Virus record (IMG/VR): IMGVR_UViG_3300037067_016568
Span: 1-64,000 of that record
DNA from: a virus
Lineage: Duplodnaviria > Caudoviricetes
Reading direction: 5' to 3' (one strand)
DNA: 64,000 nt
The stretch's first letter is position 1. The number at the start of each line of letters is the position of its first letter. Both the position numbers and the translations under genes were made by a program. The notes below the pieces were generated by a model. The model was not told the origin of the DNA. It was given only the letters and a program-made list of their open reading frames with translations, and did not search any database. This document shows positions 19,962-40,010 of the stretch, in pieces.

Positions 19962-20642
19962 TTGGTATCTGAACTCAATAAGCGCCTAGCCCAGTATAAT
20001 CGAACCCATTGGTTGACTGTTGAACAGGAACTTGATACAGCAAGATCTGAATTGTCTCGACGCAAGGAAGCAATGACAAGAGAGCAAGTCATCGCTTCTC
20101 TCACAGAGGAAGAAATCGGGCAGTTTCGCCAACGCATCATTGATGATATGACGGCTGACGATTTATGCTCACAATTTCCTGAACACGTCATCCTAGATTG
20201 CCTTTCACAAGAAGCAATAATCGCTCATGCATTTGTCAGAACAATTTCATCAATGAATCGGCATTCAACATTGATGGAAGAAAACCTGACTATGTTGGCT
20301 CGGTTGTTAGCTGAGCTACCACAAGAGAAAATGCGGCGTCAGGTGCAAGAGGCAAAATCTGCACCGGCCCGATTACCACAGGTTGCATTCGTCGGCTTCA
20401 AAACCGAACAAATAGCTATTGTAGCCGACGCTCTGAAAGGACGCATCAGAATCGACGTTGTTGACAAGAATCGCAACAGATTCGATTCACAGGCCGAAAT
20501 CATCATCATATGGACGAAGTTCATATCTCATTCTTTTGAGAAGTCAGTCGTCCAGAATATGAAGCCAGGAGCGCGATTAATACGATTCTCTGGTGGCCTA
20601 GAAAACGCAGCCAAAGAAATCAGCCGAGCACTCAAATCTTAA
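19962..20642 (+). CDS. hypothetical protein
   Basis: 226-aa ORF; C-terminal alpha/beta segment [10 protein letters not shown]. Confidence 0.55.
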
Positions 20643-23600
20643 TCTTCTGCTGTTAGGATGCCGTCAGTAAATGTTAATTGCCTGGTTGGTGAGCCGCCAC
20701 TAGTATCTGAAACGTAGTATACTTTTGTTCCAGCTAATCCAGATGGTACAGGACCTGTAGCCCCAGTTGCACCAGGGGCACCACTTATTCCTGTGGCTCC
20801 GCTAGATCCGTCTATTCCAGTTGCTCCAGTTGCTCCTGTCTCACCCTGTGGGCCGGATGCACCACCAGGATCACCCTGTAAGCCGGTGGCACCGCTCGCT
20901 CCATCTATACCTGTAGCGCCTGTGGCACCGGTTAATCCTGTTTCACCTTGAGGACCTGTTGAGCCAGTGGCACCAGTTTCTCCTTGTGGACCAGAAGCAC
21001 CGCCGGGGTCGCCCTGCAGACCTGTAGCACCTGAAGCGCCATCTACGCCAGTCGCACCGACTTCTCCCTGTGGACCTGTTGAGCCAGTTGCTCCTGTCTC
21101 ACCTTGAGGACCGGAGGCTCCTCCAGGATCGCCCTGTGGACCTGTAGCACCTGAAGCACCTATATCACCAGTGAGACCTGTTTCTCCCTGAGGGCCGGTA
21201 GCTCCTGAAGCTCCGCTAGCTCCATCAATACCAGTTGCACCTATTTCCCCCTGTGGTCCAGAAGCTCCTCCAGGGTCGCCTTGAGGACCAGTCGCTCCGG
21301 AAGCTCCGCTAGCTCCATCAATACCTGTAGCACCTGAAGCTCCGCTAGCTCCATCAACACCTGTAGCACCTGAAGCTCCGCTAGCCCCATATGGGCCCAT
21401 CAAGCCTGTGGCACCTGTTAAACCGATTTCACCCTGTGGACCAGTAGAGCCGGTCGCTCCGATTTCACCTTGAGGACCAGAAGCACCGCCAGGATCGCCC
21501 TGCAGACCTGTAGCACCTGAAGCGCCATCTACGCCAGTAGAGCCGGTCGCTCCGATTTCGCCTTGAGCTCCACTAGCACCATCTATACCGCTCGCTCCCT
21601 GAGCTCCGTCGACACCACTTGCACCGGCATCGCCCGTTAAACCGATTTCACCCTGCGGACCAGTTGCACCAGTTGCTCCCGGCTCTCCTTGCGGGCCAGA
21701 AGCTCCTCCAGGATCACCCTGTGGGCCTGTAGCACCTGAAGCACCCGCATCACCCTGCGGACCAGTAGAACCGGTTGCTCCTGTTGCTCCTGTCTCACCT
21801 TGAGGGCCAGAAGCTCCTCCAGGATCACCCTGTGGGCCGGTTGCTCCTGTTGCTCCTGTCTCACCTTGAGGACCAGAAGCTCCACCTGGATCGCCTTGAA
21901 GACCGGTGGCACCATCTGCACCAGTAGCACCAGAAGCACCTATTTCACCCTGAGAGCCTGTCGCTCCTATTTCTCCTTGTGCTCCTGAGGCACCTGCTTC
22001 TCCAGCTACACCACTAGCTCCCTGAACACCAGTGGCTCCTGAAGCTCCGCTGGCACCATCTATACCAGTTGCGCCTGCTTCTCCTTGAGGGCCAGAAGCA
22101 CCACCAGTAGGGCCTTGTGGACCCGTAGATCCGGTCGCGCCAGTTTCGCCAGTATCACCAGTGTGTCCGGTGGCACCGGAAGCACCTGGGAAACCAGTAT
22201 AACCTTGATTTCCCTGGGGACCGGTAGCACCTGATGCACCGCTAGCACCATCGACACCGGTAGCTCCTGTTAATCCAATGTCGCCCTGAACACCGGTAGC
22301 TCCTGAAGCTCCAGAAGCACCAGTTAGTCCAGCACCAGTTGCCCCAGTAAGACCGGTAAGTCCTGTTGCACCCGATGCACCAGAATATCCTGTATAACCT
22401 TGTGGACCCGTGGCACCAGTATCACCTATACCAGATGCTCCTTGAACGCCTGTAGCACCTGAGGCTCCACTTGCTCCATCAATACCGGTAGCACCAGTAA
22501 GACCTATTTCGCCTTGTGGACCGGTAGCACCTGAGGCTCCACTGGCTCCATCTATACCAGTTGCACCTGTATCGCCTACGCCACTAGCACCCTGGACACC
22601 TGTTGCTCCTGAAGCTCCGCTGGCACCATCTATACCAGTTGCGCCAGTAGGACCAACAAGGCCAGTTGAGCCAGTTGCACCAATCGGGCCTGTTGAACCA
22701 GTTGCACCTGTTGCACCAGTAGGTCCACCATATGGACCTTGAGGACCAGTAGCCCCAACAGGGCCTGTTGAGCCAGTCGCACCAGTTGCACCAGTACCCT
22801 GCGGACCTGTAGATCCGGTGGCTCCTGCATCTCCAGCAACTCCAGTTGATCCAGTTGCTCCAGTACCGGAGGCACCAGCAACACCGGAGGCACCAGCAAC
22901 ACCGGAGGCACCAGCAATTCCAGCAACACCGGTTGAACCAGTAGCACCAGTTGGACCGCCAGAAGGACCAGTAGCACCGATCGGGCCAGTGATGCTGACA
23001 CCAGTTGCACCTGTTGCTCCGGCAAATCCGGTTGCGCCAGTAGAACCCTTAATACCAGATGCTCCTACTGGGCCGGAAGCCCCACCAGTTCGACCTTGTA
23101 TACCTGTGGCACCTGTTAAACCAGTTGCCCCAGCTACGCCGGTCGCTCCGTCACGACCAATACCAGTCGCACCAGTAGCACCAACAAGACCTGTTGAACC
23201 GCCTACGCCAGTTGAACCTGTCGAACCAGCAGGGCCAGAGGCACCACCAGTGGGGCCGGTCGCTCCGGGTTGACCAGCAGGACCAGAAGCACCGTCGGGA
23301 CCGACACCAGAAGCACCAATAGGACCTTCAGGACCAGTCGAACCAGTTGCCCCAGTTGGACCGCCGCCAGGGCCAGTAGCACCAGCGGCCCCTTCAGCGC
23401 CAGTAGAACCAGTTGCCCCAAGACCACTAGCACCCTGCGGGCCGGTCGAGCCAGTTGCTCCTATCGGACCTCCAGCAGGACCAGTCGCTCCGGTGAGTCC
23501 AATACCTGTAGCACCTGTCGCGCCAGTCGGGCCACCAGAAGGGCCAGTAGCGCCAGGAATGCCAGTAGCACCTGTCGCTCCGATGCCAGTAGCACCTGTT

Positions 23601-26600
23601 GCACCAGGCAAGCTGATACCAGTTGAACCAGTCGCACCCACTGGGCCAGACGCACCGCCGGTAGGGCCAGTTGCTCCTATCGGACCGGTCGAGCCAGTTG
23701 CTCCAGCCCCCGTTGCGCCAATAGGACCAATCGGGCCTAATGATCCTTGCGGCCCCGTCGAACCAGTTGCTCCAGTTGGGCCTCCGCTTGGGCCAGTTGC
23801 TCCAGCTGCACCTGTCGCTCCAGAAGCACCAACAATACCAGTCGAAGACCAAGACAAATTCCGATAACCGTCTGTGACCAATGCCTGACCGGCTGAGCCG
23901 TCTATATTTGGGAATCGCATGTTGCTAATGACAACATTCTTCCCGGTACCCCATGCTGAAAGTTGTAAGTCTTCTCCAGACACTGAATGAATGACCGATA
24001 CTTGCAAACCACCTATATCATCATATTGCAGCCCAGCACTGTCAATTAAGCGGCCATGAGTACCAGCAAAGGGTATTCTGTTTGGTGTAAGTCGCGTTCC
24101 GTCATTCAGGACGAAACCTTTGCGAGCACTATCAGTTGTAATTGTAAAGTATAAATCATCTTGTATGAATTCAACTGTGCCTGCTTCTGGTACTGCTAGA
24201 ACGTCACCAGATTCTATTTTCATTGGTGCATTGCCTGGCGCAGCTTTACCAGCTTGAATGTGTAACCTTGCAGTTGGATTGTGTATGCCAATACCTATTT
24301 GCTGACCGGTGACAACAACTGTTTCATCCGCTCTCATTCGCTCTAGTGGATGATAAAAGTTGGTCAAGCGAGTTGCGTTATACTCTGGAACACCAGCATT
24401 GCTGTCAAGAGTGACAGTCCCCAACCAACGATATCCCTTATAATTGCCACTGGCAGCAAAGACTGGAACGCCATCTAGAGTAGCAAGGCCGTCTGAATCA
24501 ACTTGCACCCAATATCCAGCTGCCAAATCATCGGCGAACACGCCAGATGCGTGGCTAACAACGCAAGCATAAGTGTATGAATAAAGAACTCTTTGGCCGA
24601 TTGAATATGATGTCGCAGTGGCCCAATCTTCAATACGACTTTCAGAGACAGGAGTGTATTCAATATACTTTAATTCACCAATAGTAGCAAACCATAGTTG
24701 ATCTGCACCATCTATCTCTTGCATCGGGTAGGTGCATGCAGTCACATCAATGCGATAGAATCGATATTCTATCGCATTGTCGAAAGTGAAGTAATCAGAC
24801 CAAATATCGACACCAGTTGGCGGGTCGACGTCGGTTCTCGTATCCAAGATCGACCAGTTGACATTATCGTTCGAGCCAGAAAATGTCCATGTTCTCGGCA
24901 GTGATGGATAGTAAAGCTTAGCCTTAAACGCATACTTGTTAATGGCCTTCTTCACATATGGGCCAAAGTCGTATGTGATCCACATAGGCGTTTGGAAAGG
25001 ATCGCCCGGCGTATAACCGGTGCCACCAATTTGAACACCCCACCCAGGATTTCCGGGTGTATCTTCTTGATTAAAAGCATACCAGCCATATAAATATGTG
25101 CCGCCAACCTGAACACCGGTTGAGCTGGTAATGACCATGTTTGGTGCGGGATCGACAAATGATGTCATTACCGCTGTACATGTAGTCGTTCCAGTGTTAT
25201 AGATGCCATCAGACGGTACAAACTTCCACGGTGCAAAATGGATGTCAAAAGATGTAGTGCTTATAAATGATGCGAAGACGTCATACGTTCTGTTAGCAAT
25301 TAATGGATTTGCACCCATATCATTGACGATATTCGAAACTGATGGTGCAGTAATGACATTAACCACGTCCCAGGTGCTGTTGGCGTCATCATATAGCCTA
25401 ATCAGGCTTGACTCTACAAAATTCCAGCTTAAAATAGTAGTACTAGTTACTTTGAGATTACCACCAACTATATCGCTGTCGCTGGCATCTCCACCATTAT
25501 CAACCCATGATAAATTGCCATAACCGTCTGTTTGCAGAACTTGGGTTGGCAGGCCGTTGTCTCTTGGAAGATCGAGGACGCCTAATATAATATTACCAAT
25601 CGTGCCTGCTACGATTGAAATATCGCCTGTATCTTTCTTCCTTTCAACGATGTTGTAGAAGTTGCCTATCAATGAGTTATTGAAGTTAGGTGTGCCTGCT
25701 ACATCATACAATGACAGTATGCCAAGCCATCTGTATCCTTTAAAGTCTCCAGAATTGGCATAAACAGGAACGCCATCGAAGACTCCTAACCCACACGCTT
25801 CGACCAAAAACCACAAACCACTTGCTAAATCGGTAGCAAAATCGCCTGAAGTATGAGCAGAAAGACATGCATAGACGCTATCATGAATAACTCTATCGCC
25901 AACATTATAGGCTGTACCGGTTTCCCAATAACTGGCTCTCGAATTAGCTGGAACGCCACGTACGAGCTTAATCTCGTTTAGCTCAACATACATCGCACCA
26001 TAGCCAGCATCAGCAGGGCAATCAGTGATGAGCTTATAATAGCGATAAGCTGAGCCGTTGGAGAACGTATAATAAGCGCTCCATGTTTGATCGCCTGGAC
26101 CGCTTATACCAGTTCTCGAATCTAGTAGAACGTAATCGACACCGTTCTTTGAACCGTAGAGGCTGAATTGGGTCGGAAACGCCCCATTATCATTTGCTCG
26201 TAAAGCATACTTATTGACAATGGTTGGGACATTGAAGTCGTATTGTATCCAAGCCGAGGCAGCTAATGGGATAGGTGTAGATGACCAATAACGAGCAACA
26301 TTGTCACTAAACGCATTCCAAACCTCATATAATTCGCTGCTTGCACTGCTAATCTGTGGTGCTGGCGTAACATCAGAGGTCATTGTCGTGGTGCATGTTG
26401 TAGTTCCCGGATTATCAGCACCATCAATAGACATGACTTTCCAGGGGGCAAAGTCAATATCAAATGCAGTTAGCGTGCCGTTGTAGACAGCAAACACGTC
26501 GTAAACCAAATCAGATTCTAATGCATTGCCGCCAAGATCGTTGGAGAGATTAGAGGCGACAGGTTCAGTTGTTATGTCGAGCAACTCCCAAGCAAGCACA

Positions 26601-27682
26601 TCAGTATTATAAAGACGAATGTGATTTGAGGAGTAAAAGTTCCAGTTTAAAACATCGCCAGTGTCGGCTTCTAATCGGCCACCGACAGTATCGCTACTCT
26701 CACCACCCGGCACAATCATGCTGTTGACATAACGAACTGTCGCTACGTCGTCTGCTACTGATGGAGTTGGTGTATGGTTGTTGAGGAATTCGTTATCTGT
26801 TCCGAGATCAACCGCTGGAATTCGGAACGTATTGTGATTAACGATATTGCTGTTTGAACCAGAATCTAAAGTGAATGACGACCCGACAGCACGCTCTACT
26901 AATGCGTTATTTTCGATAGTATTAGAGCTTGAGCTCACGAGCTTCACAGCGTCTAAATTGTCATCTATCTTGTTGTAATGTAGAATGTTGCTATCTGAAT
27001 TCTGAACGTAAAAGCCGATGGTGTTTGACTTCGATGTGCTCTCAGTGATTGAATTGTTGTTAGAATAAACGATAGAAAAGCCAGTGTTAACGTTGGAATC
27101 ACTGATATTCTCTTCACCGTGGTTTCCGGTGGAGTTGAAGACACCAATGCCATCGGCATTGTTTATGGTTGTATTGTTCGAAACCGTATTATCGTTCGAG
27201 GAATTCTTAAGTACAATGCCATATTCGCGGTTGCCGTCGCAAGTGTTATTCGTTATGACGTTATTACCGCTTCCAGTTAGCTCAATGCCATTCTTATTTC
27301 CTGTGCATACACACAAATCAATAGTAAAGACATCTTCTGGAGATGAATTGTCAAGAAGAATACCGGCTTGATTATCTGTAGACGCTGTTACCGTGAAGAG
27401 TTTAAACATACCGGACACAGCAGTAATCCGGACAGTCGGCGCAGACGTCCCGTCTCCTCGGATAATTGTTGTACGTGGGTCGTCAGTATAGATATTGAGG
27501 ATTTTATTAATTGTCAGATTTTCGGCATACGTCCCCGGTCTGACATAAATGACATCTTTTTCAGCGGCGGCGTCAATAGCCGCCTGAATAGTAGTATATT
27601 CATCATAGTCAGTAGAACCGACGCTGATGGTGTAATCAGCAGTTGCTTTAGTGACTATTCTGTCGGTATTTCTTAACGTCAT
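20639..27682 (-). CDS. collagen-like fibre protein with N-terminal parallel beta-helix (pectin-lyase/NosD-like) and two discoidin-like domains
   Basis: [11 protein letters not shown]...PGTY.EN beta-helix start; N-rich repeats; two GS.NG..W/Y..LD motifs; ~1000 aa G-X-Y. Confidence 0.85.
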
Positions 27683-29777: not shown

Positions 29778-30438
29778 TCAAGCCGAAGCCGCTGCCGAGA
29801 AGGCTGAGACTCAAGGGATCGATGATGTCAGTGAGTTGGGAAAAGCCGAGATAGAACAACAATACTTTCCCGACGATGCTCAATAAAAACTGTGAGTTCA
29901 AAGCTACAATAGAACAGGAGATTTCGAAATGCGAACACCAGTATATGTGATAGGCAACAACTCTCATCAGCCGGTCAGCGTCAACTATCAAGCTGGTGCA
30001 GAAGCTGCCGTTGGCGACGTGCCTCAAACTGCCCATGGCTTGCTGACGATTGTACCTGGAAAAAAGGTAACAATCGAGCAGTCACGAGTGAATTTTGGTC
30101 AGCTTCATACTTTGGCCTCCAACAATTTGCTTACAATGACAGAGGGCTACCTATGAGCCTCAGCACCATCACAATAACGCGGCAGTGCCCTGTAATAGAT
30201 TACTTTGTCGTTCTTCCGAACAACATCGAATCGAAGGCTACTGCCGTGCCAGTCGCTGGCTTTATAGCGGCCACAGGCGGCATTGTGAATAGGCTGTCTC
30301 AGGCAAGTAATCAAGGCAGACACGGCTATCGATTCGGTGCCCAAGAATGGGTTGAATTATCAGAAGCCATTGGCGGTTCAAACGCAGCGTTGGAAGCCGG
30401 TAAGACGCTCTATGGCACCAACGTACGAACCGACAAAC

Positions 30439-31110
30439 CTAAGCCGTGGGAGAGTTAAATCTTGCCACGAATGCTGCATAATCATCAGCAGTGTCGATGC
30501 CATATGTAGGCTCATCGGCGATTCCTACCAAAATCTTATGGCCTGTGTAAAGTGCTCGCAGTTGTTCGAGACTCTCCATTATTTCTATTTGACATTGAGG
30601 ATACCGAACAAGCTCTAATAAAAAATCTCGCCGATAAGCATAAATGCCAACGTGCCGATAAAAAGAAGATTTTAAAAGTTCTGGACCGTCCAGCAAGGTG
30701 GGGTAAGGAATAGGATTTCTGCTGAAATATAAAGCTCGATTGTTGTGATCTAAAACAACTTTCACGCAGGCCGGATTGGTAAGTTGTGATAGACTGCAAA
30801 TTGGAGAAGCGATAGTGCTCATCACGTCCGATGGATTCTCTATGAGTAGCTTAACTGCCAAATCGATTAATGAGCCTTTTATTTCAGGTTCATCAGCTTG
30901 CACATTGATGATGATATCAACATCAGCGTGATCTCCGATTTGGCTTGTGGCCATCGCCACTCTTTCCGTCCCGTTCTCTGCCGGGCCGGTCATTACAACA
31001 TTACCACCGAATGATTCTACTTCTTTGCGAATCTCGTCGACAGTAGTAGCAACATATATGCCTTCTGAATAGACGGACTGCATAGCAGATTCATAAGTAT
31101 GTTGTATCGA
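30439..31110 (-). pseudogene. kdsB: CMP-KDO synthetase, 5'-truncated
   Basis: NGTERV, INVQADEP, VKVV....ALYFSR.PIP, HVGIYAY, E.LEQLRAL, GIDT..D; homology extends to IQHTYESA then an in-frame stop, so the N-terminal PAR..S.R...K nucleotide-binding motif is absent. Confidence 0.8.
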
Positions 31111-31125
31111 TGATCAGATAGCGAC

Positions 31126-31428
31126 TCACCACTTTTCTCCACTCAACTTCTGAACTTCCTTATCCTGTTTGACTATAGCATTCCTCAGCTGCCTTGCTAC
31201 AAATGCTTGGTCCTCAGCATCATCCATAGCAGCTATCAGCCAACCAGACTTATACTCTTTACTTCTCTCGATCTCCGGTCGAAGTCGGTTGGAGTTGAAG
31301 AAAGCTACGTAACCAGACTTCCACTCACTAGACTCTGTTGCATACTTAGCAGGAATGCAATCAAAGTGGTTTGAGCATCCGGCTAAAATCACAACAACCA
31401 TCAAACAAACGCCTCGCTTTGTTAACAT
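31126..31428 (-). CDS. putative lipoprotein
   Basis: basic N-terminus, hydrophobic stretch, LAGC lipobox. Confidence 0.6.
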   Translation of the reverse strand: MLTKRGVCLMVVVILAGCSNHFDCIPAKYATESSEWKSGYVAFFNSNRLRPEIERSKEYKSGWLIAAMDDAEDQAFVARQLRNAIVKQDKEVQKLSGEKW

Positions 31429-31640
31429 CTTACACCTCCACCTTTATTACCCAACAATACCATTATATTATATACCAGGTTGGAACACAAGATGAGTTTA
31501 TTGGTAGTTTCGACAGTTACACTAATCCGGCGTCAGCCAAGATGCATAACACGGATTTGCCAGTATTGCGCAAGAGAAGCTTACCCGGCAATCGAGACGA
31601 ACTTAAACGAGCAGGAATAATAATTCTCCCTGCCTGTAAT

Positions 31641-32255
31641 CCTGTAGCTGCTTGGAAACGAACGCTATTCTCCATTTCGCGGCGATCAGCTTGCCCGACG
31701 TCCCGCCCTGTAGTTACCTGGGAACGAACGCTATTCTCCATTTTGATATTTCAAATAATTCCAGCGATTCTACCTGTAGTTACCTGGGAACGAACGCTAT
31801 TCTCCATTAGTCGAGCAACTCTTGGACGAGCCGTTGGTCCTGTAGTTACCTGGGAACGAACGCTATTCTCCGTTTTATTCCAAGGCTGCTGATTGTCAAT
31901 GGTCCTGTAGTTACCTGGGAACGAACGCTATTCTCCATTTCGGTCTTCTACGGCATGCCTGTAGTTACCTGGGAACGAACGCTATTCTCCATTCCAATAG
32001 GCGGCGCGACCGGCGATGCCAACCCTGTAGTTACCTGGGAACGAACGCTATTCTCCATTCTATTCCGACCACTCCAGATGCAAGTTCTCCTGTAGTTACC
32101 TGGGAACGAACGCTATTCTCCATTGATGCCGACCATTCGCTTTCGCAAGAGAACCTGTAGTTACCTGGGAACGAACGCTATTCTCCATTGCCGCTCATCA
32201 GGGATGATGTTTTTGGGTACCTGTAGTTACCTGGGAACGAACGCTATTCTCCATT
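31641..32255 (-). CRISPR. CRISPR array 1: 10 repeats (36 bp), 9 spacers (18-30 bp)
   Basis: plus-strand repeat CCTGTAGTTACCTGGGAACGAACGCTATTCTCCATT at 31641 (degenerate), 31707, 31773, 31839, 31904, 31958, 32024, 32089, 32154, 32220. Confidence 0.95.
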
Positions 32256-32261
32256 ACGCTA

Positions 32262-32807
32262 TTAGGTGGTTCCCGGCACCTTATCTTTCTGCACAGCCTC
32301 GGTAGCGATGGCGTATTGCAGCTTAACATAACTCGAAGCTAATATCAGAAGCGTGTTGAGGTTAACGGTGATTTTCTCCTTGGGGCACTCTAAGTGCACC
32401 AGTATCTCATCATTAACCTTTCGGCCTTTTATCTCAACCGCCCCAATTTCATTATTCAAAACCTTGCCGTTGATCCAAGCGGTGACACCATGACCGCTTG
32501 GATCAGCCCAATCGTCCGACAGGCCAGCAGCCGCCATGAAAGCCAAAAGGCTTTTGCCCTCTGGCGATCGTGCCAAACTAGAAGACATTCCAGAGGTCTT
32601 TGGAAGCCTTATTGTTATATCTCGCTCCACAGGCGTTTCGTCGTCTTCGAATTTGACAACCCACACTTCTGACGGCGGATTCGATGTATGACAAAGACGA
32701 ACTAACGACACAAGTTGTGCCTTGCCTTCGAGTTCTAGATGTTCACTGGGAGTCTGTTGCTTCTTGTAGACGGAGCACCAATCTCCACGCCTCAAAACTG
32801 ATTTCAC
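32262..32807 (-). CDS. hypothetical protein inside CRISPR locus
   Basis: 181-aa ORF ending within the array 1 leader. Confidence 0.55.
   Translation of the reverse strand: MKSVLRRGDWCSVYKKQQTPSEHLELEGKAQLVSLVRLCHTSNPPSEVWVVKFEDDETPVERDITIRLPKTSGMSSSLARSPEGKSLLAFMAAAGLSDDWADPSGHGVTAWINGKVLNNEIGAVEIKGRKVNDEILVHLECPKEKITVNLNTLLILASSYVKLQYAIATEAVQKDKVPGTT
32264..32281 (-). promoter_or_regulatory. conserved leader hairpin of array 1
   Basis: AGGTG-CCGGGAAC-CACCT on minus strand; identical to the one beside array 2. Confidence 0.65.
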
Positions 32808-32894
32808 TTTACTAGTCCCCCCTGTAGTCCTGTCCCTGAATCTCGCAATTAAATCTCTGCGCTGTGATACCTTTTTATAGCTCGACGGATGTGG

Positions 32895-33440
32895 TTAATT
32901 AGCTTCGAGTTCGGCAATCCGTGTTTGAAGTTCGGCAATCCGTGTTTGAAGTTCGGCAATTCGTGCTCGAAGCGCCTCATTCTCCGCTTCCAGGGTCTTA
33001 ATACGCGCCAAAAGCTGGTCCTGGACCGCCTGCATTGACGCCTTGATTTTGCGAGCTTCCTTATATGGATCAGCTGGCTTGGCCCGGCGACGACTACGTG
33101 GGGCGTCGGATTTCGTTTTGGCGAGCATGCCGTTATACATGTCGCGAAGCTTACCATTCTTCCATTGATATTCTTCCGGATAGTGCTTGAGCATCATCCG
33201 TAATTCGGAGAAGGTCAAGCAAAGGTCGATGACATACTCATCCAAGATGGCCAAGAGTTTGTTGTTGTCCAAGATCTCATTGTCGGCCCGAAAATCTGGA
33301 TCTTCATAGACGCTGTTCAGCAGAGTTGTCCGCCGATAGGCGTTGTGGCCGCTTGACTGCTGTAGCTTCCGGACTTGCTGTAAGAGCTTCTTGTACTGCT
33401 TTTCGCAGCGTGGCTGGGTTGGTGTGGTCGACCTCATCAA
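32895..33440 (-). CDS. hypothetical protein with C-terminal coiled coil
   Basis: GGAGA RBS; heptad IAELQTR repeats encoded by a 21-bp tandem repeat at 32909-32960. Confidence 0.6.
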   Translation of the reverse strand: MMRSTTPTQPRCEKQYKKLLQQVRKLQQSSGHNAYRRTTLLNSVYEDPDFRADNEILDNNKLLAILDEYVIDLCLTFSELRMMLKHYPEEYQWKNGKLRDMYNGMLAKTKSDAPRSRRRAKPADPYKEARKIKASMQAVQDQLLARIKTLEAENEALRARIAELQTRIAELQTRIAELEAN

Positions 33441-33568
33441 TAGTTCTCCTTAGTCTTTTATGAAAAGCTGATAGTTGCGCACATTGACGACAACAAAATT
33501 TCTTGTTGCCGTTCAATGGCGTCTTACATATTGGACATTCCCCCTGTCCTGTAGTCCTGGCCTGTAGT

Positions 33569-33806
33569 CCTGTAGTTACCTGGGAACGAACGCTATTCTC
33601 CATTTTCGGCATCGGTGATCTCCCTGTAGTCCTGTAGTTACCTGGGAACGAACGCTATTCTCCATTTGCGGTTCTGTTCAGCGAGGAGGCTGTGGCCCTG
33701 TAGTCCTGTAGTTACCTGGGAACGAACGCTATTCTCTATTGCGACGTGCCATTACCGAATGCGATCTATGCCTGTAGTTACCTGGGAACAAACGTAATCC
33801 CACATT
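33569..33806 (-). CRISPR. CRISPR array 2: 4 repeats, 3 spacers
   Basis: repeats at 33569, 33631, 33705, 33771 (last one divergent in its distal half); extra CCTGTAGT octamers before three of the repeats. Confidence 0.9.
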
Positions 33807-33811
33807 TCGCT

Positions 33812-33835
33812 TTTAGGTGGTTCCCGGCACCTAAA
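33812..33835 (-). promoter_or_regulatory. conserved leader hairpin of array 2
   Basis: plus strand TTTAGGTG-GTTCCCGG-CACCTAAA. Confidence 0.65.
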
Positions 33836-33844
33836 TATGTCCCC

Positions 33845-34147
33845 TTAGTCCGGCAGCCTGAAAATATTAACCCATCTTCCATAGATTTTTGTTTTGCGCT
33901 TCACCAATTCGCCCGGCGTTCTGGCTAACGCCGCCATCACGCGATCTGATGTTTTCGTACATTCGTGCGGCCATCCTAGACGTTCAGCTATTAGATGTAA
34001 CAGCCCCTCATCACCAAACATGACAGCTGGGTTGTCTGTTTCTCTCAACACTTCAACGGCAGCATCGCATACTCGCATTATAGCTATGTATTCTGTAGTC
34101 GTATCCCAAATGGCGGTGTCAATTGATGAAAAAGAATATAAATGCAA
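33845..34147 (-). CDS. hypothetical protein inside CRISPR locus
   Basis: small ORF; helix-helix-helix-hairpin pattern might be winged helix (weak). Confidence 0.4.
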   Translation of the reverse strand: MHLYSFSSIDTAIWDTTTEYIAIMRVCDAAVEVLRETDNPAVMFGDEGLLHLIAERLGWPHECTKTSDRVMAALARTPGELVKRKTKIYGRWVNIFRLPD

Positions 34148-34171
34148 AATATTTCTGCTGCAAATGTCAAG

Positions 34172-34384
34172 CTAAATAATACAAGTGATAGAAACGTCGA
34201 ATGCGATTGATATAGTCAAGCAGATCCAAAAAGCCAGCATGCTACAAGCAATTGGCGTAAGGGGACATAACGTTTCAGCTAGTGCAAATGGCTTTATCTG
34301 GAATAGCACATACCAAATATTGCCGATAATCGGAGCAACAAATGGCGGAATAAGCAACCAGATTAATTTGTCTATCTTGCTCAT
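34172..34384 (-). CDS. small membrane protein
   Basis: two hydrophobic segments. Confidence 0.45.
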   Translation of the reverse strand: MSKIDKLIWLLIPPFVAPIIGNIWYVLFQIKPFALAETLCPLTPIACSMLAFWICLTISIAFDVSITCII

Positions 34385-34457
34385 CTATATCACTATTATA
34401 CATCACTAAGAAGAAGCTGTCAAGCTCCCATCTGGCTACCCCGCATTCCGCCATGGA

Positions 34458-35600
34458 TTATCTGTTGATTGTTACGTCGATATCGATCTTATTACATGCC
34501 CGTTGGATCAACGATTGCATTTGTCGCCAATCCCATCGAGTCGTTTCAGTGTTGCCAATGCGTCCTGCATATTCTAAATAGTAATCCGCAGGAGGAGCAA
34601 AGATAACAAGATGACCGATGCCATTTGTTGCCAGTAATCTTGTCACATCATTGGCAAGGTGGGTGCTCCAGGTTTTGATGAAATCACGCCACCGCCGCTC
34701 ATATTTCGCCTTGTCTGCAGCCGAAATATATTTCCTGGTCTTCTTACTCTCTTGAATATCCAAGGTATTTCGCGTGTGTTCAACATCCTCGCCGCGACGA
34801 AGGCGGAATATGGTTTTACCATTGAATCGGAAGGAGAATGGGCGACGTTGCGCCGCTAACAGAAATGCCGTCTTATTCTTGTCAAGCGGTACTTTCACCT
34901 TGGGAATAGAATGGCAAGGATAAGCAATTAATCTACCGTCGCGTTCCTTCAAGTCGAGTCCCTTTAAATCCCATTCACCCGCTGCAATTTTCCACAGCAT
35001 ATCGCGGACAGAATGTAGCCTATAGCTTTTGGTCTTAATGATGAATGTCATCAAACCATAGCCGTCGACGTTGACCTCAAGCTTCCAATCTTCATTCTTG
35101 CTCTGCGGAACGATGATTCGGCAGTCACGTTTATGAAACGGAATGCTACTTCGTTGAGACGACTGTAGGAGACCTCCTCGGCCCAAAAGGACTGTTATCC
35201 AGCGAGGATAAGCCGACTTATACCCATGTTTCTGCAGTATTCTCAACGCTTTCTCGGTTGCTAGCTTACAGTGCTTGTTCATCGAGGGATATGTAGCAGA
35301 CATGATTTCGTCAAGCTGCTGAGCCATTTCGGTACTGCATGGATCGACAGGGCACCGCGTACGGGGGCCAACGCGAGTCTCAGGCTCGTAAAGCCAGCGG
35401 CGATCTTGTTCTGCCCATTCACGAACGAGAAGATGATTGCCAGCTTCAAAATGAATTCGCAACCATGCTGACATAAAATCGTTGACGATTCTCTGAATAT
35501 CAGAAGCAAGAGTGCCGATGTACTTTTTGTGTGACTTATAGTCATCGTCACCGCCAAGTAAACTGATTCGCTTGTTCTTAACAACTCGAAAGTCGGCCAT
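34458..35600 (-). CDS. Cas12f/TnpB-like protein B, nuclease-dead and C-terminally truncated
   Basis: paralog of 35735..37096 (NDF.S.W...H.EAG, CPV.P.S..MA, RW...L.G.G, VP.S.N..WKL, LWKI..GE, WDW..MQ); RuvC-I site reads TAFLLAA, RuvC-II reads HLVIFAP. Confidence 0.75.
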   Translation of the reverse strand: MADFRVVKNKRISLLGGDDDYKSHKKYIGTLASDIQRIVNDFMSAWLRIHFEAGNHLLVREWAEQDRRWLYEPETRVGPRTRCPVDPCSTEMAQQLDEIMSATYPSMNKHCKLATEKALRILQKHGYKSAYPRWITVLLGRGGLLQSSQRSSIPFHKRDCRIIVPQSKNEDWKLEVNVDGYGLMTFIIKTKSYRLHSVRDMLWKIAAGEWDLKGLDLKERDGRLIAYPCHSIPKVKVPLDKNKTAFLLAAQRRPFSFRFNGKTIFRLRRGEDVEHTRNTLDIQESKKTRKYISAADKAKYERRWRDFIKTWSTHLANDVTRLLATNGIGHLVIFAPPADYYLEYAGRIGNTETTRWDWRQMQSLIQRACNKIDIDVTINR

Positions 35601-35613
35601 ATCGTCCTCTGTA

Positions 35614-35698
35614 GGTTAAAAAAGGTAACTCTGGCGAGAGCTAACACGGTACGGAATGCCCGCAGCTATTCTCGCCTTCGAGACGTACAGGACGCCTC
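35614..35698 (-). ncRNA. putative tracrRNA, copy 1
   Basis: two hairpins, split anti-repeat (CCUGU loop + AGUUACCU), U6 tail; TGCTATAAG extended -10 about 20 nt upstream (35717-35725). Confidence 0.75.
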
Positions 35699-35734
35699 AA
35701 TTAGTGATTCTGCAAACTTATAGCACAAAAACAA

Positions 35735-37096
35735 TTATCGATTAACTTCTTTTTTACGGGGCTTACCTCCTTGCCTAGCGATTACTTTCATCCCGGCTGC
35801 TGCTCCAACCGCTTCCAACTGCTGCTGCATGTGGTACCAATCCCAGGCCGTCGATTCATTACGGCCAATTTTTCCGACATTAGAGAGATAACGAGTATCT
35901 CGCCATTTACCGGTTGGCTGATATGTTACCAGTTGACCAACGCCCGCTTTAACACAGCGACCTATAACCTCTGCGGCCCAAGTGTTGTTGAAGGTTTTGG
36001 TCTGATTACGCCAATTGCGTTCCGACTTTCGCCGCCAGTTATGGACTTTACGACCATGGTTTTTACGCGCACTAGATGCATATTTGTACGATTCGCTTTT
36101 ACCGAACCGTTGAAGCGTCAAAGAACGACGAGCATGTTTAATGTGCCTGCAGCTTCGCAGTTTCATATGTGTCTTACCATCAATGCGAAGCATCACGCCA
36201 TGATATCGACCACCTGATACGACAGCCGTTTTCTTGCTATCAGAGGGGGCAACCACACCGGGCATCAAATAGCAGATATCCGCATACCACTTGCCGGTGT
36301 TTTCACACTTAATGATCTGCGAAGTGCCGAAAATGTATTCGCCAGACGTAATTTTCCACAACACCTTGCGAATAGGTGCTAAATGACGCCCGCCAGTCCG
36401 AAGTTTGAAAACCATGGGGCGTAGAGTTCTTTGGCCATCTACTTTTTCGTAACGAACAATCAACTTCCAAGGGTCATTATTACTTTTAGGGACGACGAAG
36501 TTGCTGTTAGCGGTGTAGAATGGAACCGGTTGTGGTCTGGAAAATTGTGAATATTCTCCATATCCACATAGGATCATAAACCAGCGCTTATATTTAGACT
36601 TCGTGGCCGGTGTGGAGAGGAGCGTACTACTAAGCCGCCTAGAAACAATACCAATCGGTTTAGTCCCTAAATTGCAGTGTTGAGTAGTCAGGCGTTTATA
36701 GATCTCATTCGCCATCTTGTTAGAATATGGCTGAACGGGGCATTTTGCACGTGGAGGGATTTTCACGTCGAAAGAGGGGAGTAACTCCTTCTTTCCTTTT
36801 CGCTTCTGAGCTTTCTGAGCCTTGTCCAATTCGCCGTATTTCTGTGCCCATTCCTTATCTTCTTGTATCCATTTACGAAGAGCAGTGGGAGAGCCAGCTT
36901 CAAGATGCAAGCTAAACCACTGACTATGAAAATCATTTGCGATTTGCTGCATTTGAAGCGATATCTTGGCGAGACGTTCTTTTTCCTCTGCAAAGCCGTC
37001 GTCAATACCACATAGCTGGACGCGAATAATCTTCGTAAGTCCTTCTGGCTTCTTTTTACGTGGTTTCTTTTCTGCCGGTTTCTTCAATTTACTCAC
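35735..37096 (-). CDS. Cas12f-like protein A, nuclease-dead and C-terminally truncated
   Basis: KITSGEY.FGTSQII.....KWY..I.Y, KYASSARKNHGRK, WDWYHMQQQL...AAGMKVI align by eye with AsCas12f1-type RILSGEY..SASQII.....KWYLNISY, KYAGGARGGHGRD, WTYYDLQQKI...EEAGIKVI; GIDLG is replaced by VVSGG, MEDL by TYQP; no Zn finger or RuvC-III. Confidence 0.8.
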   Translation of the reverse strand: MSKLKKPAEKKPRKKKPEGLTKIIRVQLCGIDDGFAEEKERLAKISLQMQQIANDFHSQWFSLHLEAGSPTALRKWIQEDKEWAQKYGELDKAQKAQKRKGKKELLPSFDVKIPPRAKCPVQPYSNKMANEIYKRLTTQHCNLGTKPIGIVSRRLSSTLLSTPATKSKYKRWFMILCGYGEYSQFSRPQPVPFYTANSNFVVPKSNNDPWKLIVRYEKVDGQRTLRPMVFKLRTGGRHLAPIRKVLWKITSGEYIFGTSQIIKCENTGKWYADICYLMPGVVAPSDSKKTAVVSGGRYHGVMLRIDGKTHMKLRSCRHIKHARRSLTLQRFGKSESYKYASSARKNHGRKVHNWRRKSERNWRNQTKTFNNTWAAEVIGRCVKAGVGQLVTYQPTGKWRDTRYLSNVGKIGRNESTAWDWYHMQQQLEAVGAAAGMKVIARQGGKPRKKEVNR

Positions 37097-37143
37097 TATA
37101 GTCTCCTACACAAAATAAGCGGCTTTATTCAGGGGCCTGTAGT

Positions 37144-37552
37144 CCTGTAGTCACCTGGGAACGAACGCTATTCAACATTCACATCGGGCTTGTAGTCAAG
37201 CCTGTAGTTACCTGGGAACGAACGCTATTCAACATTATTGAGACAACTTAATCAATGATGTCCTGTAGTCACCTGGGAACGAACGCTATTCAACATTTAA
37301 AACTGTCCCGTCCCGTTTTGATATAGCCTGTAGTCACCTGGGAACGAACGCTATTCAACATTTCAGAAGCTGTGAAAGCTTCATCTTGGCACGCCTGTAG
37401 TTACCTGGGAACGAACGCTATTCAACATTCCTCGGCGATTTCGTCGGCTGTAATTGGCACCTGTAGTCACCTGGGAACGAACGCTATTCAACATTTCCCT
37501 TCGTCGTGATAATCAGCCTGTAGTCACCTGGGAACGAACGCTATTCAACATT
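37144..37552 (-). CRISPR. CRISPR array 3: 7 repeats (variant CCTGTAGT(C/T)ACCTGGGAACGAACGCTATTCAACATT), 6 spacers (21-31 bp)
   Basis: repeats at 37144, 37201, 37262, 37327, 37394, 37460, 37517. Confidence 0.95.
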
Positions 37553-37564
37553 ACGCTAACGGGT

Positions 37565-37648
37565 GGTTAAAAAAGTAACTCTGGCGAGAGCTAACACGGT
37601 ACGGAATGCCCGCAGCTATTCTCGCCTTCGAGACGTACAGGACGCCTC
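37565..37648 (-). ncRNA. putative tracrRNA, copy 2
   Basis: identical to 35614..35698 apart from a 1-nt deletion near the U-tract; ends 12 nt upstream of the first repeat of array 3. Confidence 0.75.
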
Positions 37649-37735
37649 TATTTGGTGATCATAGTTTATCTGGACTGTTTTAGCATCACATTAATAGGTA
37701 GTTAACTTCGATTAATCTCTTGTGAAGCCTGTAGT

Positions 37736-37914
37736 CCTGTAGTTACCTGGGAACGAACGCTATTCTCCATTTCGTCTCCATTTACATTTTGAACGAACGC
37801 TATTCTCCATTGACGCTAAGGGCCACGTTATCGGAGCACCTGTAGTTACCTGGGAACGAACGCTATTCTCCATTCGGCTGTTATGAAAAGATATTGCAGA
37901 TCCTCCTGTAGTTA
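37736..37914 (-). CRISPR. CRISPR array 4: 2 full and 2 partial repeats, 3 spacers
   Basis: full repeats at 37736 and 37839; partial 37791-37811; handle-only CCTGTAGTTA at 37905-37914. Confidence 0.85.
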
Positions 37915-37995
37915 TTCACGAAGAAGTGTCATCTCGGATTTCTTTGATTTTTATTCATATGTGCTCTGATATAATCCTTTAGCACGCTGGTAGTT

Positions 37996-38054
37996 TTTTA
38001 TAGCACGACGCTGGTATTAATTAATTAAATAGCCATATTTGTCGTGCTATAAAA
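37996..38054. promoter_or_regulatory. 14-bp inverted repeat, probably divergent extended -10 promoters
   Basis: TTTTATAGCACGAC (37996-38009) / GTCGTGCTATAAAA (38041-38054) around an AT-rich core, between the CRISPR locus and a plus-strand operon. Confidence 0.6.
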
Positions 38055-38070
38055 GGGTAGAGGTTTAAAA

Positions 38071-38781
38071 ATGAAGCTAAGCAAACGGTACATCTACCCA
38101 CCACGTCCAAAAGACGCAATCCCTTTTAGTCAGATTGGGATGTATAATCAATACGGGTGGAAAGCCCAAACGAAATTCAACGATAAACGCACCGAAATCG
38201 CAATCGATGCAAACACTGTCGAGATATTTAACCGCCACAAAGGACAACACAAGACATTCGTGTTGTCCGATTCTCTGCGAGATGAGATCATCGTTGTTTG
38301 TCGTGACATTTTCGGATTGGATGTATCACAATGGTCATACCTCGATGGGGGGTTGCTTGATGGAAAGAGCAAGCACATCGAAGGGATGGTCGTCATCTGG
38401 GACATCCTAGTCCGTGAGGGCGATTGGCTCGTCGGCAGCACTTATCAAGAGCGATATGAATGGCTACTAACCAAAGCGGAGGCCGCTGGCGGCGAACCGT
38501 TCATCGTCATCATAAATGGTCAAGAGTTTGACTTCGGCATCAGACTCAGCGAACACATTTTTATGCCGCGATTCTGGGAAGACTTCGAATCTTGCTGGCA
38601 ATTTACGCAAGAAGTCAACAAAGCTGCCGGATGGAGCATGGAGAATGGTGGTGAGCCCGTATTAGAAGGGATTGTTATGAAAGATCCTCAGGGAGTCTTA
38701 AAACCTGATAACGGGAAAGAAAAGAATAATACTGAATGGTCTGCTAGAAGCCGAGTTAGAACTGGCCGTCATCATTTCTGA
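38071..38781 (+). CDS. ATP-dependent ligase-like nucleotidyltransferase domain protein
   Basis: QTKFND (motif I K), YLDGGL, IWDIL, EGIVMK motifs. Confidence 0.65.
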   Translation: MKLSKRYIYPPRPKDAIPFSQIGMYNQYGWKAQTKFNDKRTEIAIDANTVEIFNRHKGQHKTFVLSDSLRDEIIVVCRDIFGLDVSQWSYLDGGLLDGKSKHIEGMVVIWDILVREGDWLVGSTYQERYEWLLTKAEAAGGEPFIVIINGQEFDFGIRLSEHIFMPRFWEDFESCWQFTQEVNKAAGWSMENGGEPVLEGIVMKDPQGVLKPDNGKEKNNTEWSARSRVRTGRHHF

Positions 38782-39479
38782 GAGGTATGATGTGACACAT
38801 AAAGAGATAAAGGTCGGGCAAGAGTATGATTTCATCGATCAGCCTGTGAGAATCGTCGAAATTCTCTACTTCACAGACAACGGAAAGAAGAATGCTGAAA
38901 CGGCTATAGCGGCTACCCGATTTGGCGGCACAGTAGAAGTGCCGATTGCAGCCCTGCAGAGACGGCAGTAAGCAGAAATCTGAGAACTTTCGCTCTTTTA
39001 GATTTGGATCTTATTAATGCCACAACCGACACTTGAAATAACGCCATTGGGAGCAGCCCTGGTTGAAGCCATGCCAGATCGAAAGAAGATGGCTCACGTC
39101 CGTAAGCTGTTCAAACAAAAGAAATGCCCAGATTCTGAATTGTTTTCGGTCGAAGAAGTAGAGCATTGGTATTTCGATCGCGGTCAGAAAATAAAGGGCA
39201 TTGAACGTAGAGGAAGCATCAATGGATAATGAAACACGCGAAACGCATGAAAGCTTCGGTATGATCGGCTTTTTCCGGGGAGCTCGTGGAGGATCGGGCA
39301 CCAATCTCTTTGGATCATCTATTCGGCATCCTCATACAATTACATGTCGTATCAAGCGGGCGATGAAAGAAAGGCGCTTAAATCGAGATACGTGCAACGC
39401 ACCAATGAACTAGGTATTAAATGTCTCCAAGGCGGCGAATCACTGGCTCCGCCACCGGCCATAGAAGTCGAGGGCTAAT

Positions 39480-40010
39480 ATGCGAATAATCTATCAGAAT
39501 AGCTACGAGAAATCGCATGCTGACGTTTTTGAGGCTAGGATTGCCGAGATCAACTTCGGGGGATATGACGCAGCAGATTTTGATGAATGGACCTCAACCG
39601 TTCTCAAAATGTTCAAACCCAGATCGCGTACAGCAAAACAAATCGCGGTGGAGATGGGTGATCTGTGCATCAAAGAATCACCCACGCATCCAGCGCCTCC
39701 CAGCCGGATTTTTAGGGTCCGCAATCCGGCTGGGTTATTTTGGTATGTTGATATCATTCCTGTGACAAAACAGTTCCTTTTTATTCTAGATAAAGAGCAC
39801 ACGGAAGCTATCTCACCAGATGAAGGTATAGCACGTCTTATCCACAAACAGACAGGTCATAAGACTAGGAGCGTCGTATCAGGCGATTTGTCGACTGTGA
39901 CAGTGGAAACAGGACATGGCACTTTCACTACCGTCGATACTCGCACACAAGAAGATCGTAAAAAAGAAGGCAACGAAACGCTAAAACGTTGGACTAATGA
40001 TACTAAATAA
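39480..40010 (+). CDS. hypothetical protein
   Basis: 176-aa ORF. Confidence 0.45.
   Translation: MRIIYQNSYEKSHADVFEARIAEINFGGYDAADFDEWTSTVLKMFKPRSRTAKQIAVEMGDLCIKESPTHPAPPSRIFRVRNPAGLFWYVDIIPVTKQFLFILDKEHTEAISPDEGIARLIHKQTGHKTRSVVSGDLSTVTVETGHGTFTTVDTRTQEDRKKEGNETLKRWTNDTK

Follow-up and report, generated by a model that had tools for sequence, protein, structure and literature searches.

In Cas12f1, Cas12b, Cas12g, and Cas12l, the tracrRNA joins the CRISPR repeat through a long repeat/anti-repeat stem and a second, short stem of 5–7 bp that lies in a pseudoknot, and in Cas12k and Cas12e two parts of the anti-repeat sandwich the repeat in a 3-bp triple helix (PMC11246509). Nuclease-dead members of this protein group have also been described. 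The sigma-E-linked dCas12f proteins (Hoffmann et al., Nature 2026, PMC13472631; structures 9n9c and 9n9m), which in Bacteroidetes occur in linkage with rpoE and HTH genes, use single chimeric guides with no tracrRNA-like species, and the same study notes a dCas12f cluster that is linked to CRISPR, has putative guides lying upstream of arrays, and may or may not overlap the phage family described here. TldR is likewise nuclease-dead (bioRxiv 10.1101/2023.11.30.569447).

We analyzed a stretch of 64,000 nt (the window) that belongs to a 184,768-bp IMG/VR virus contig with an estimated completeness of about one half. CRISPR arrays, the genes of two dCas12f-like paralogs, and two copies of a small element lie there on the minus strand in the order array 4, copy 2, array 3, P0002, copy 1, P0001, array 2, array 1 (Table 1). 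The element is very likely a tracrRNA gene of about 80 nt, with a short 5' leader, belonging to a nuclease-dead Cas12f-type system of the phage; its expression, processing, and protein binding are inferred. We favor this reading because, in ten related loci, changes in the repeat are matched by changes in each of the element's two pairing segments; compensatory changes in both hairpins and the Cas12f fold of the adjoining proteins lend further support. The gene sits in the CRISPR-cas locus but outside the arrays.

Table 1. Features of the phage locus and its surroundings, in window coordinates.
Feature	Position	Strand	Remarks
2347-aa protein	20639-27682	minus	beta-helix, carbohydrate-binding, and collagen-repeat domains
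CRISPR array 1	31641..32255	minus	10 repeats by family D1, 9 by strict pattern; distal repeat degenerate
Zinc-ribbon ORF and coiled-coil protein	33612-32895	minus	102 aa and 181 aa, overlapping
CRISPR array 2	33569..33806	minus	4 repeats
dCas12f-like paralog B (P0001)	34458..35600	minus	380 aa
tracrRNA copy 1	35618..35698	minus	covariance model 100.7 bits, E 2e-25; between the two dCas12f genes
Copy 1 U-run	35623-35618	minus	
Copy 1 long anti-repeat	35630-35623	minus	AGUUACCU
Copy 1 hairpin 2	35676-35633	minus	GGCGAGA...UCUCGCC, 44 nt
Nine-nucleotide word in hairpin 2, 5' arm	35672-35664		GAGAAUAGC
Copy 1 hairpin 1	35698-35680	minus	GAGGCGU 35698-35692, loop 35691-35687, ACGUCUC 35686-35680
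Copy 1 short anti-repeat	35691-35687	minus	CCUGU, the hairpin-1 loop
Promoter-like motif	35718..35726	minus	GTGCTATAA, extended -10 type, 20 nt upstream of copy 1; inference only
dCas12f-like paralog A (P0002)	35735..37096	minus	453 aa
CRISPR array 3	37144..37552	minus	7 repeats with a variant 5' half, five with handle AGGUGACU-ACAGG
tracrRNA copy 2	37569..37648	minus	covariance model 99.6 bits
Copy 2 tail	37580-37573	minus	AGUUACUU
Copy 2 loop	37641-37637	minus	CCUGU
CRISPR array 4	37736..37914	minus	2 full repeats and one internal fragment; upstream of copy 2
Lone 10-nt handle in array 4	37914-37905		
Handle stutter sites	37143-37136, 37735-37728, 33704-33697, 33630-33623, 33568-33561		ACUACAGG

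Read on the minus strand, the repeat is 36 nt long and ends in AGGUAACU-ACAGG, and the element holds the complement of this end in two separate places. The segment CCUGU is the exact reverse complement of ACAGG, and AGUUACCU is that of AGGUAACU; ACAGG and AGGUAACU together make up the repeat's last 13 nt. The variants within the locus preserve the pairing, with the array-3 handle AGGUGACU and the copy-2 tail AGUUACUU still forming 8 pairs through G-U, 6 of them Watson-Crick. When the 81-nt element was shuffled 300,000 times, the 8-mer arose 348 times and both segments arose together 61 times, a frequency of about 2e-4. In copy 1, hairpins 1 and 2 are separated by GAA, and hairpin 2 is separated from the tail by AG. 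Copies 1 and 2 are identical at 82 of 84 positions (98%, repeat family D6), and copy 2 is followed on the minus strand by a 16-nt leader and then the first repeat of array 3. The minus-strand fold of the element reaches -32.0 kcal/mol (z -3.0), as compared to -21.9 kcal/mol for the plus strand (z +0.4), which is no better than shuffled sequence. An initial annotation, made without database searches, had described a duplicated element with these two hairpins at this place, a loop and tail reconstituting the complement of the repeat's 3' end, variants that remain wobble-paired, and G-U pairs that work on the minus strand only. The sequence, the place, the exact 13-nt complementarity, and the wobble pairing all held, and the difference in fold between the strands fits the choice of strand.

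A 5-nt loop paired over its full length would be strained unless the closing U-A pair opened, and this innermost pair of the 7-bp hairpin 1 probably does open when the loop pairs, because the corresponding loop in relatives is 6–9 nt on a stem of 5–6 bp. No curated Rfam model matched window positions 30000-40000 at E <= 1, and a covariance model of the element found just the two copies in the whole 184,768-bp record. Two further features were considered and rejected: the handle-like AACCUACAGAGG directly after copy 1 is without a counterpart in relatives and overlaps the ribosome-binding site, and we take it to be chance; a pairing between the 5' flank and the tail (GACUC with GAGUC) is present in relatives and absent in the window. 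As a separate observation, GAGAAUAGC in the 5' arm of hairpin 2 recurs in the 5' half of every repeat of arrays 1, 2, and 4. Hairpin 2 retains it in nearly all lineages (GCGAACAGC in L012), and the repeats of relatives do not, a sharing that could be a trace of the tracrRNA's origin from a repeat or could be chance.

The element is found in every related locus with readable DNA. These comprise a 122-kb viral contig with three copies, a complete 364-kb viral contig with four, the viral contig L134, a contig binned with a Thermoguttaceae genome (L141), the short metagenome contigs L002, L011, L131, L132, L144, and L145, and also L012. Its core is nearly invariant while the neighboring proteins fall to 33–38% identity. 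Protein-pattern scans of viral and genome collections recovered nothing beyond the two viral contigs already known.

Both pairing segments track the cognate repeat in all ten lineages that have an array on the same contig. In 10/10 lineages the hairpin-1 loop contains, at the same position, five bases that are Watson-Crick complementary to the final 5 nt of the lineage's own repeat, with CCUGU facing ACAGG in eight lineages, CCUGC facing GCAGG in L012, and CCUAC facing GUAGG in L132. The tail complements 8–14 nt just upstream of those five and does so with seven different sequences (AGUUACCU with AGGUAACU, AGUCACCU with AGGUGACU, ACUUGCCU with AGGCAAGU, GUCGUCUCUC with GAGAGACGAC, GUCACGUCUCAG with UUGAGACGUGGC, CUACCCUUUU with GGAAGGGUAG, and a bulged GCC(A)CCCC with GGGGGGC). 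It begins 2–4 nt past hairpin 2 (7 nt in L141, counting its bulged start), and 0–1 nt separates the bases it pairs with from the last five of the repeat (one A in L141, allowing for the bulge). A 5-bp loop duplex and an 8–14 bp tail duplex thus recur at fixed positions, as expected of a short and a long anti-repeat, with the three-dimensional pseudoknot remaining inferred; the 'long' duplex of the window is itself just 8 bp. For the divergent classes (L134, L132, L145, and L012), the best match of each element is its own repeat. We scored this specificity by counts of contiguous pairs and discarded a duplex-energy matrix, which was blurred by pairing between U-runs and A-runs. Comparison of L011 with the window shows how narrowly the constraint falls on the repeat, with the two repeats having only the 13-nt handle in common and the other 23 nt being unrelated.

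L012 allowed a prediction to be made from the repeat alone. From a repeat ending in GGGUAGC-GCAGG we predicted the loop and the tail, and the covariance model then located an element at 2220-2313 (79.7 bits, E 6e-19) with loop UCCUGCG and tail CUACCCUUUU, in a place where it had lain under a mis-called gene start. An earlier candidate tracrRNA on this contig, inside a zinc-ribbon ORF at 1909-1978, was rejected once the model had located this copy. The called start of the L012 protein P0020 (464 aa) overlaps the element at 2208-2313; its real start is probably the ATG at 2317, and database entries for the family may well carry false N-termini for the same reason.

The hairpins themselves covary. 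RNAalifold, run independently, gave the same 19 pairs as the structure we had drawn by hand, and across 13 sequences 99.2% of the cells in the internal helices are paired, with seven compensatory pairs. Hairpin 1 contributes four of these and hairpin 2 three, one from its outer stem and two from its inner stem. When partners were slid by 1–3 columns as a control, only 32–45% of cells were paired, with at most one compensatory pair. A covariance model of homologous loci, which the initial annotation had suggested as a check, was built from 13 element copies; it matched only within CRISPR loci and recovered the L012 copy. In three large viral records it found the known copies alone, all within the CRISPR locus, and in 825 kb of unrelated control loci no score was better than E 0.25. 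A simpler 15-nt pattern for hairpin 1 matched more than 118 unrelated viral contigs and was set aside as noise, with those contigs reused as negative controls for the model. The sequences behind these figures are related, so that shuffle counts are not probabilities and overstate significance, and the model's E-values are rough; the element is also nearly invariant in most lineages, so the hairpin covariation derives from few events.

The flanking proteins place the element beside a Cas12f-type effector. The paralogs P0001 and P0002 are 30% identical (E 2e-61) and gave no match in Pfam or NCBIfam, and P0002 matches AsCas12f chains by phmmer (E 4e-9). A profile of 14 family members searched against the PDB recovered Cas12f1 structures (E 1.7e-12). 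AlphaFold modeled P0002 poorly when given 8 sequences (pLDDT 53), and we used instead a model of P0001 built from 80 sequences (pLDDT 93.7), for which the top 16 Foldseek hits were all Cas12f, led by AsCas12f (E 5e-15) and followed by CnCas12f1 and the published dCas12f 9n9c. The window's proteins accordingly have the Cas12f/TnpB fold, with its WED, REC, and RuvC core, and they have lost the catalytic residues. The RuvC-I Asp column holds S, A, or G, the RuvC-II Glu column holds Q or A in the window's two proteins, and the chain stops before RuvC-III, so that the Asp-Glu-Asp triad is missing. The AsCas12f alignment ends at residue 361 of 422, about 60 short and before the C-terminal zinc finger/target-nucleic-acid-binding domain. 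The same C-terminal end is seen in 14/14 family members and in nearly all of 150 listed representatives, out of a family of 380 cluster representatives (E <= 1e-3) that are nearly all 400–480 aa long.

Modeling P0001 and P0002 as a heterodimer gave a score of 0.65, compared to 0.00 for the best control, at a mark that was reached by 58 of 80 solved complexes and by 2 of 110 mismatched pairs. The runs had at least 71% of their contacts in common, and partner pLDDT was at least 72. Homodimers were not modeled, and relatives with a single dead Cas12f gene also exist. The predicted heterodimer may mirror solved Cas12f homodimers, and it is possible, on the strength of the model, that the two paralogs are non-equivalent protomers of a Cas12f-type dimer. 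In single-gene relatives we also observed that the first array repeat begins either at the final codons of the dead Cas12f gene or within them (L011:2313-2348, L012:3603-3638, L134:6367-6332).

The initial annotation had further read the element as a split anti-repeat tracrRNA with 'Cas12f/Cas12k geometry' and as a directly designable sgRNA scaffold. Covariation in 10/10 lineages, hairpin compensation, and the Cas12f fold support the first of these, with expression inferred. The comparison with Cas12f held, and that with Cas12k was imprecise, since Cas12k uses a triple helix (PMC11246509). The last claim held in part: such a scaffold would serve for DNA binding and not for cutting, because the effectors are nuclease-dead and truncated.

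Transcription of the element and the ends of its RNA are inferred. The motif upstream of copy 1 (Table 1) is one of three such sites in the window, all beside the locus, a count that is not significant alone; motifs resembling GTGCTAYAA precede several element copies in relatives. A simple scan of the minus strand found no sigma-70 promoter and no intrinsic terminator at either copy, and the U-run begins 9 nt past hairpin 2, so that termination there would be non-canonical. In L132 and L145, a strong stem and U-run that we read by eye as an intrinsic terminator follow the tail, which fits a discrete small RNA and thereby supports action in trans. Some copies in the 364-kb relative lie directly after a stop codon without a promoter-like motif and would need excision from a longer transcript, and it is possible that the RNA is also released from longer transcripts.

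In the mechanism we propose, the element would be transcribed from the minus strand and fold into a 6-bp hairpin displaying (N)CCUGU(N) in its loop and a conserved, bipartite hairpin of 44 nt. The 3' tail AGUUACCU would pair with AGGUAACU of the repeat transcript to form the long duplex (8 bp), and the loop would pair with the adjoining ACAGG, next to the spacer, to form the short duplex (5 bp) as a pseudoknot. The crRNA part of the resulting guide would require only its 13-nt 5' handle. Two Cas12f-like proteins, possibly as a heterodimer, would hold the RNA pair and bind DNA without cutting it. The action in trans, the loading into protein, and the binding of DNA without cleavage are all inferred. 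Copies that lie just upstream of a cas gene or array probably double as the 5' leader of that unit, which is again an inference.

A fifth array lies about 86 kb away on the minus strand of the same record and outside the window (G000:C1:123690-124060, L157), with the same repeat, the same type of leader (GGGAACCACCUGACAGCGA), no tracr copy nearby, and an extra ACUACAGG after several of its repeats. This word is the last 8 nt of the handle, and it is duplicated right after several repeats in the window too, including the last repeat of arrays 2, 3, and 4. Relatives show the same stutter (L001:165-172, and L132:6655-6676, where the 11-nt GUGGCUGUAGG occurs twice), and it may conceivably neutralize an extra crRNA from the terminal repeat. 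No adaptation genes were found in the window. Spacers gave only chance matches of at most 15 nt to the phage's own genome, a phage GenBank collection queried with the locus and with array 1 gave no match, and exact-protein look-ups of P0004, P0005, and P0008 returned nothing.

Other genes in and around the locus were noted as well. A zinc-ribbon ORF (CPIC...CCRQC, ending ...RLRRTIDE) overlaps the start of a coiled-coil protein, and in the window the pair comes after an array, as it also does in five to six further lineages (tblastn E 1e-9 to 1e-39); it is present in L005, L013, L134, L145, L012, and L131. The two form a conserved accessory pair, and a partnership with the dead Cas12f proteins is possible. 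No sigma or HTH family was detected in the 17 ORFs scanned around the locus; in L132, the dead Cas12f gene is preceded on its own strand, at a distance of 2.9 kb, by an ECF-type sigma factor gene (1513-2097; Sigma70_r2, r4_2). The Gly-X-Y coding repeats of the 2347-aa protein contain dozens of words resembling ...GGUGCUACAGG on the same strand as the crRNA handle, which is probably a coincidence.

Relatives also carry variant forms of the element. In the 122-kb relative, one copy (L001:1957-2070, equal to L013:5488-5600) has a tail, AGAGUCACC, that runs into UGACUACAGG, so that the element continues into the last 10 nt of a repeat and a 29-nt spacer before a normal repeat follows. The junction can fold into a 4-bp stem with the loop ACCU. 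This copy looks like a natural tracr-crRNA fusion and hence a single guide, a likely reading that rests on inference from sequence alone. Distant relatives have one or two additional hairpins 5' of hairpin 1 (L145:190-262, L132:4830-4860), and the window's version is likely a minimal form by comparison.

The alternative that survives best, although we consider it unlikely, is that the element is a single-guide scaffold acting in cis, co-transcribed with a downstream handle and spacer and needing no pairing in trans, like TnpB omega RNA or the chimeric guides of sigma-E-linked dCas12f. In its favor are the fused copy just described, the position of window copy 2 and of two copies in L005 only 16–35 nt upstream of the first repeat of an array, and the fact that published dCas12f proteins use single guides, with no tracrRNA having been detected for them (PMC13472631). 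However, copies upstream of protein genes lead into a ribosome-binding site and start codon, with neither handle nor guide; each array contains many repeats with the 13-nt handle, all of which only a partner in trans could serve; and arrays 1, 2, and the fifth are without an adjoining copy and so need a trans-acting partner. The terminator-like stems after the tail in L132 and L145 also count against it.

A cis-regulatory leader (attenuator, terminator, or operator) of the cas genes and arrays, in which complementarity to the repeat is regulatory only, is very unlikely. Directly downstream of the element there is indeed always a dCas12f gene or an array, and the element does end in a U-run. 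Yet this explanation accounts neither for a loop and tail that track the repeat's last 13 nt over seven sequence classes, nor for the handle being the repeat's only conserved part, nor for the match to the dual anti-repeat geometry of Cas12f1 (PMC11246509), and a leader role can in any case co-exist with that of a tracrRNA. Harder still to sustain is the idea of a decoy through which the phage, by imitating the tracrRNA or guide of a host Cas12f, would hijack or block the host's CRISPR system. The record is viral, and phage guide mimics against Cas9 have been reported (bioRxiv 10.64898/2026.06.01.729453), but this phage brings cognate arrays and Cas12f-like genes of its own, it is with these arrays that the element co-varies, and gene, tracr, and array are linked in every lineage. 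Chance resemblance, or a decayed and functionless repeat fragment, is all but excluded: the 9-mer GAGAATAGC does occur in both the window's repeat and hairpin 2, but relatives with this same hairpin 2 lack the word in their repeats, and the shuffle estimate, the covariation, and the near-invariant core all speak against it.

The tracrRNA reading thus remains the one we prefer, and it would set the guide-RNA architecture, an 80-nt tracrRNA with a 13-nt handle, for an otherwise uncharacterized family of 380 representatives, with pairing rules already mapped by natural covariation. If true, the RNA and proteins of 380–450 aa would be among the smallest programmable DNA-binding platforms for repression or effector fusion, and the natural tracr-handle fusion with its 4-nt loop offers a template for drawing a single guide. 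That large phages retain a nuclease-free, multi-array CRISPR system suggests RNA-guided control of genes during infection. A bolder reading joins these elements into one claim: a self-contained, nuclease-free phage CRISPR system with an obligate dead-Cas12f heterodimer, an 80-nt tracrRNA, and 13-nt-handle crRNAs, which would silence host or rival-phage transcription or, with the zinc-ribbon and coiled-coil partners, redirect it; whose tracr would have multiplied to provide a separate copy with every subunit gene and every array; and in which the relative's fused copy would capture the step from dual RNA to the single guide of other dCas12f proteins. Taken as a whole, we lean slightly against this joint claim.

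The pairing scheme is already known from Cas12f1 and Cas12b, as the comparison shows. What is new is a very small, multi-copy tracrRNA that would serve a phage-borne pair of dead Cas12f proteins, with the binding inferred. The arrangement resembles that of the V-F1 Cas12f1 systems (AsCas12f, Un1Cas12f1, SpCas12f1) and of the parallel Cas12b tracrRNA in having a dual anti-repeat with the long part on the 3' side and the short part on the 5' side, and it further resembles Cas12f1 in placing the guide 3' of the repeat and in its homologous proteins, a single RNA being served by a dimer in the case of Cas12f1. The tracrRNAs published for Cas12f1 exceed 100 nt by a wide margin, and their long stems are longer. 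The phage core, in contrast, is about 80 nt and uses only 13 nt of the repeat (8 and 5 bp), and the phage loci differ from Cas12f1 in carrying two to four tracr copies, in encoding truncated effectors without the RuvC residues, and in residing in large phages. Like Cas12k, the system belongs to the tracrRNA-dependent type V group and has a naturally inactive RuvC; unlike Cas12k and Cas12e, which are much larger proteins, it would form a short pseudoknot duplex and no triple helix.

With the dCas12f proteins of Hoffmann et al. the phage family shares the Cas12f fold together with a C-terminal truncation in which part of the RuvC site is lost. It differs from them in having full arrays, a separate tracrRNA, two paralogs, and a viral genome, and in lacking a sigma gene among the ORFs scanned, and by sequence profile it is nearer to active Cas12f1 than to their clade. 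TnpB omega RNA and the TldR guide offer the remaining parallel, a small scaffold with the guide at its 3' end, which serves a protein of this superfamily about 400 aa long; those, however, are single RNAs encoded at a transposon end without arrays, whereas the phage scaffold and guide are separate and would be joined by pairing, save for the one natural fusion in a relative. In evolutionary terms, the phage system would be intermediate, with tracrRNA-dependent Cas12f1 on one side and, on the other, the dCas12f activators with single guides that were described in 2026.
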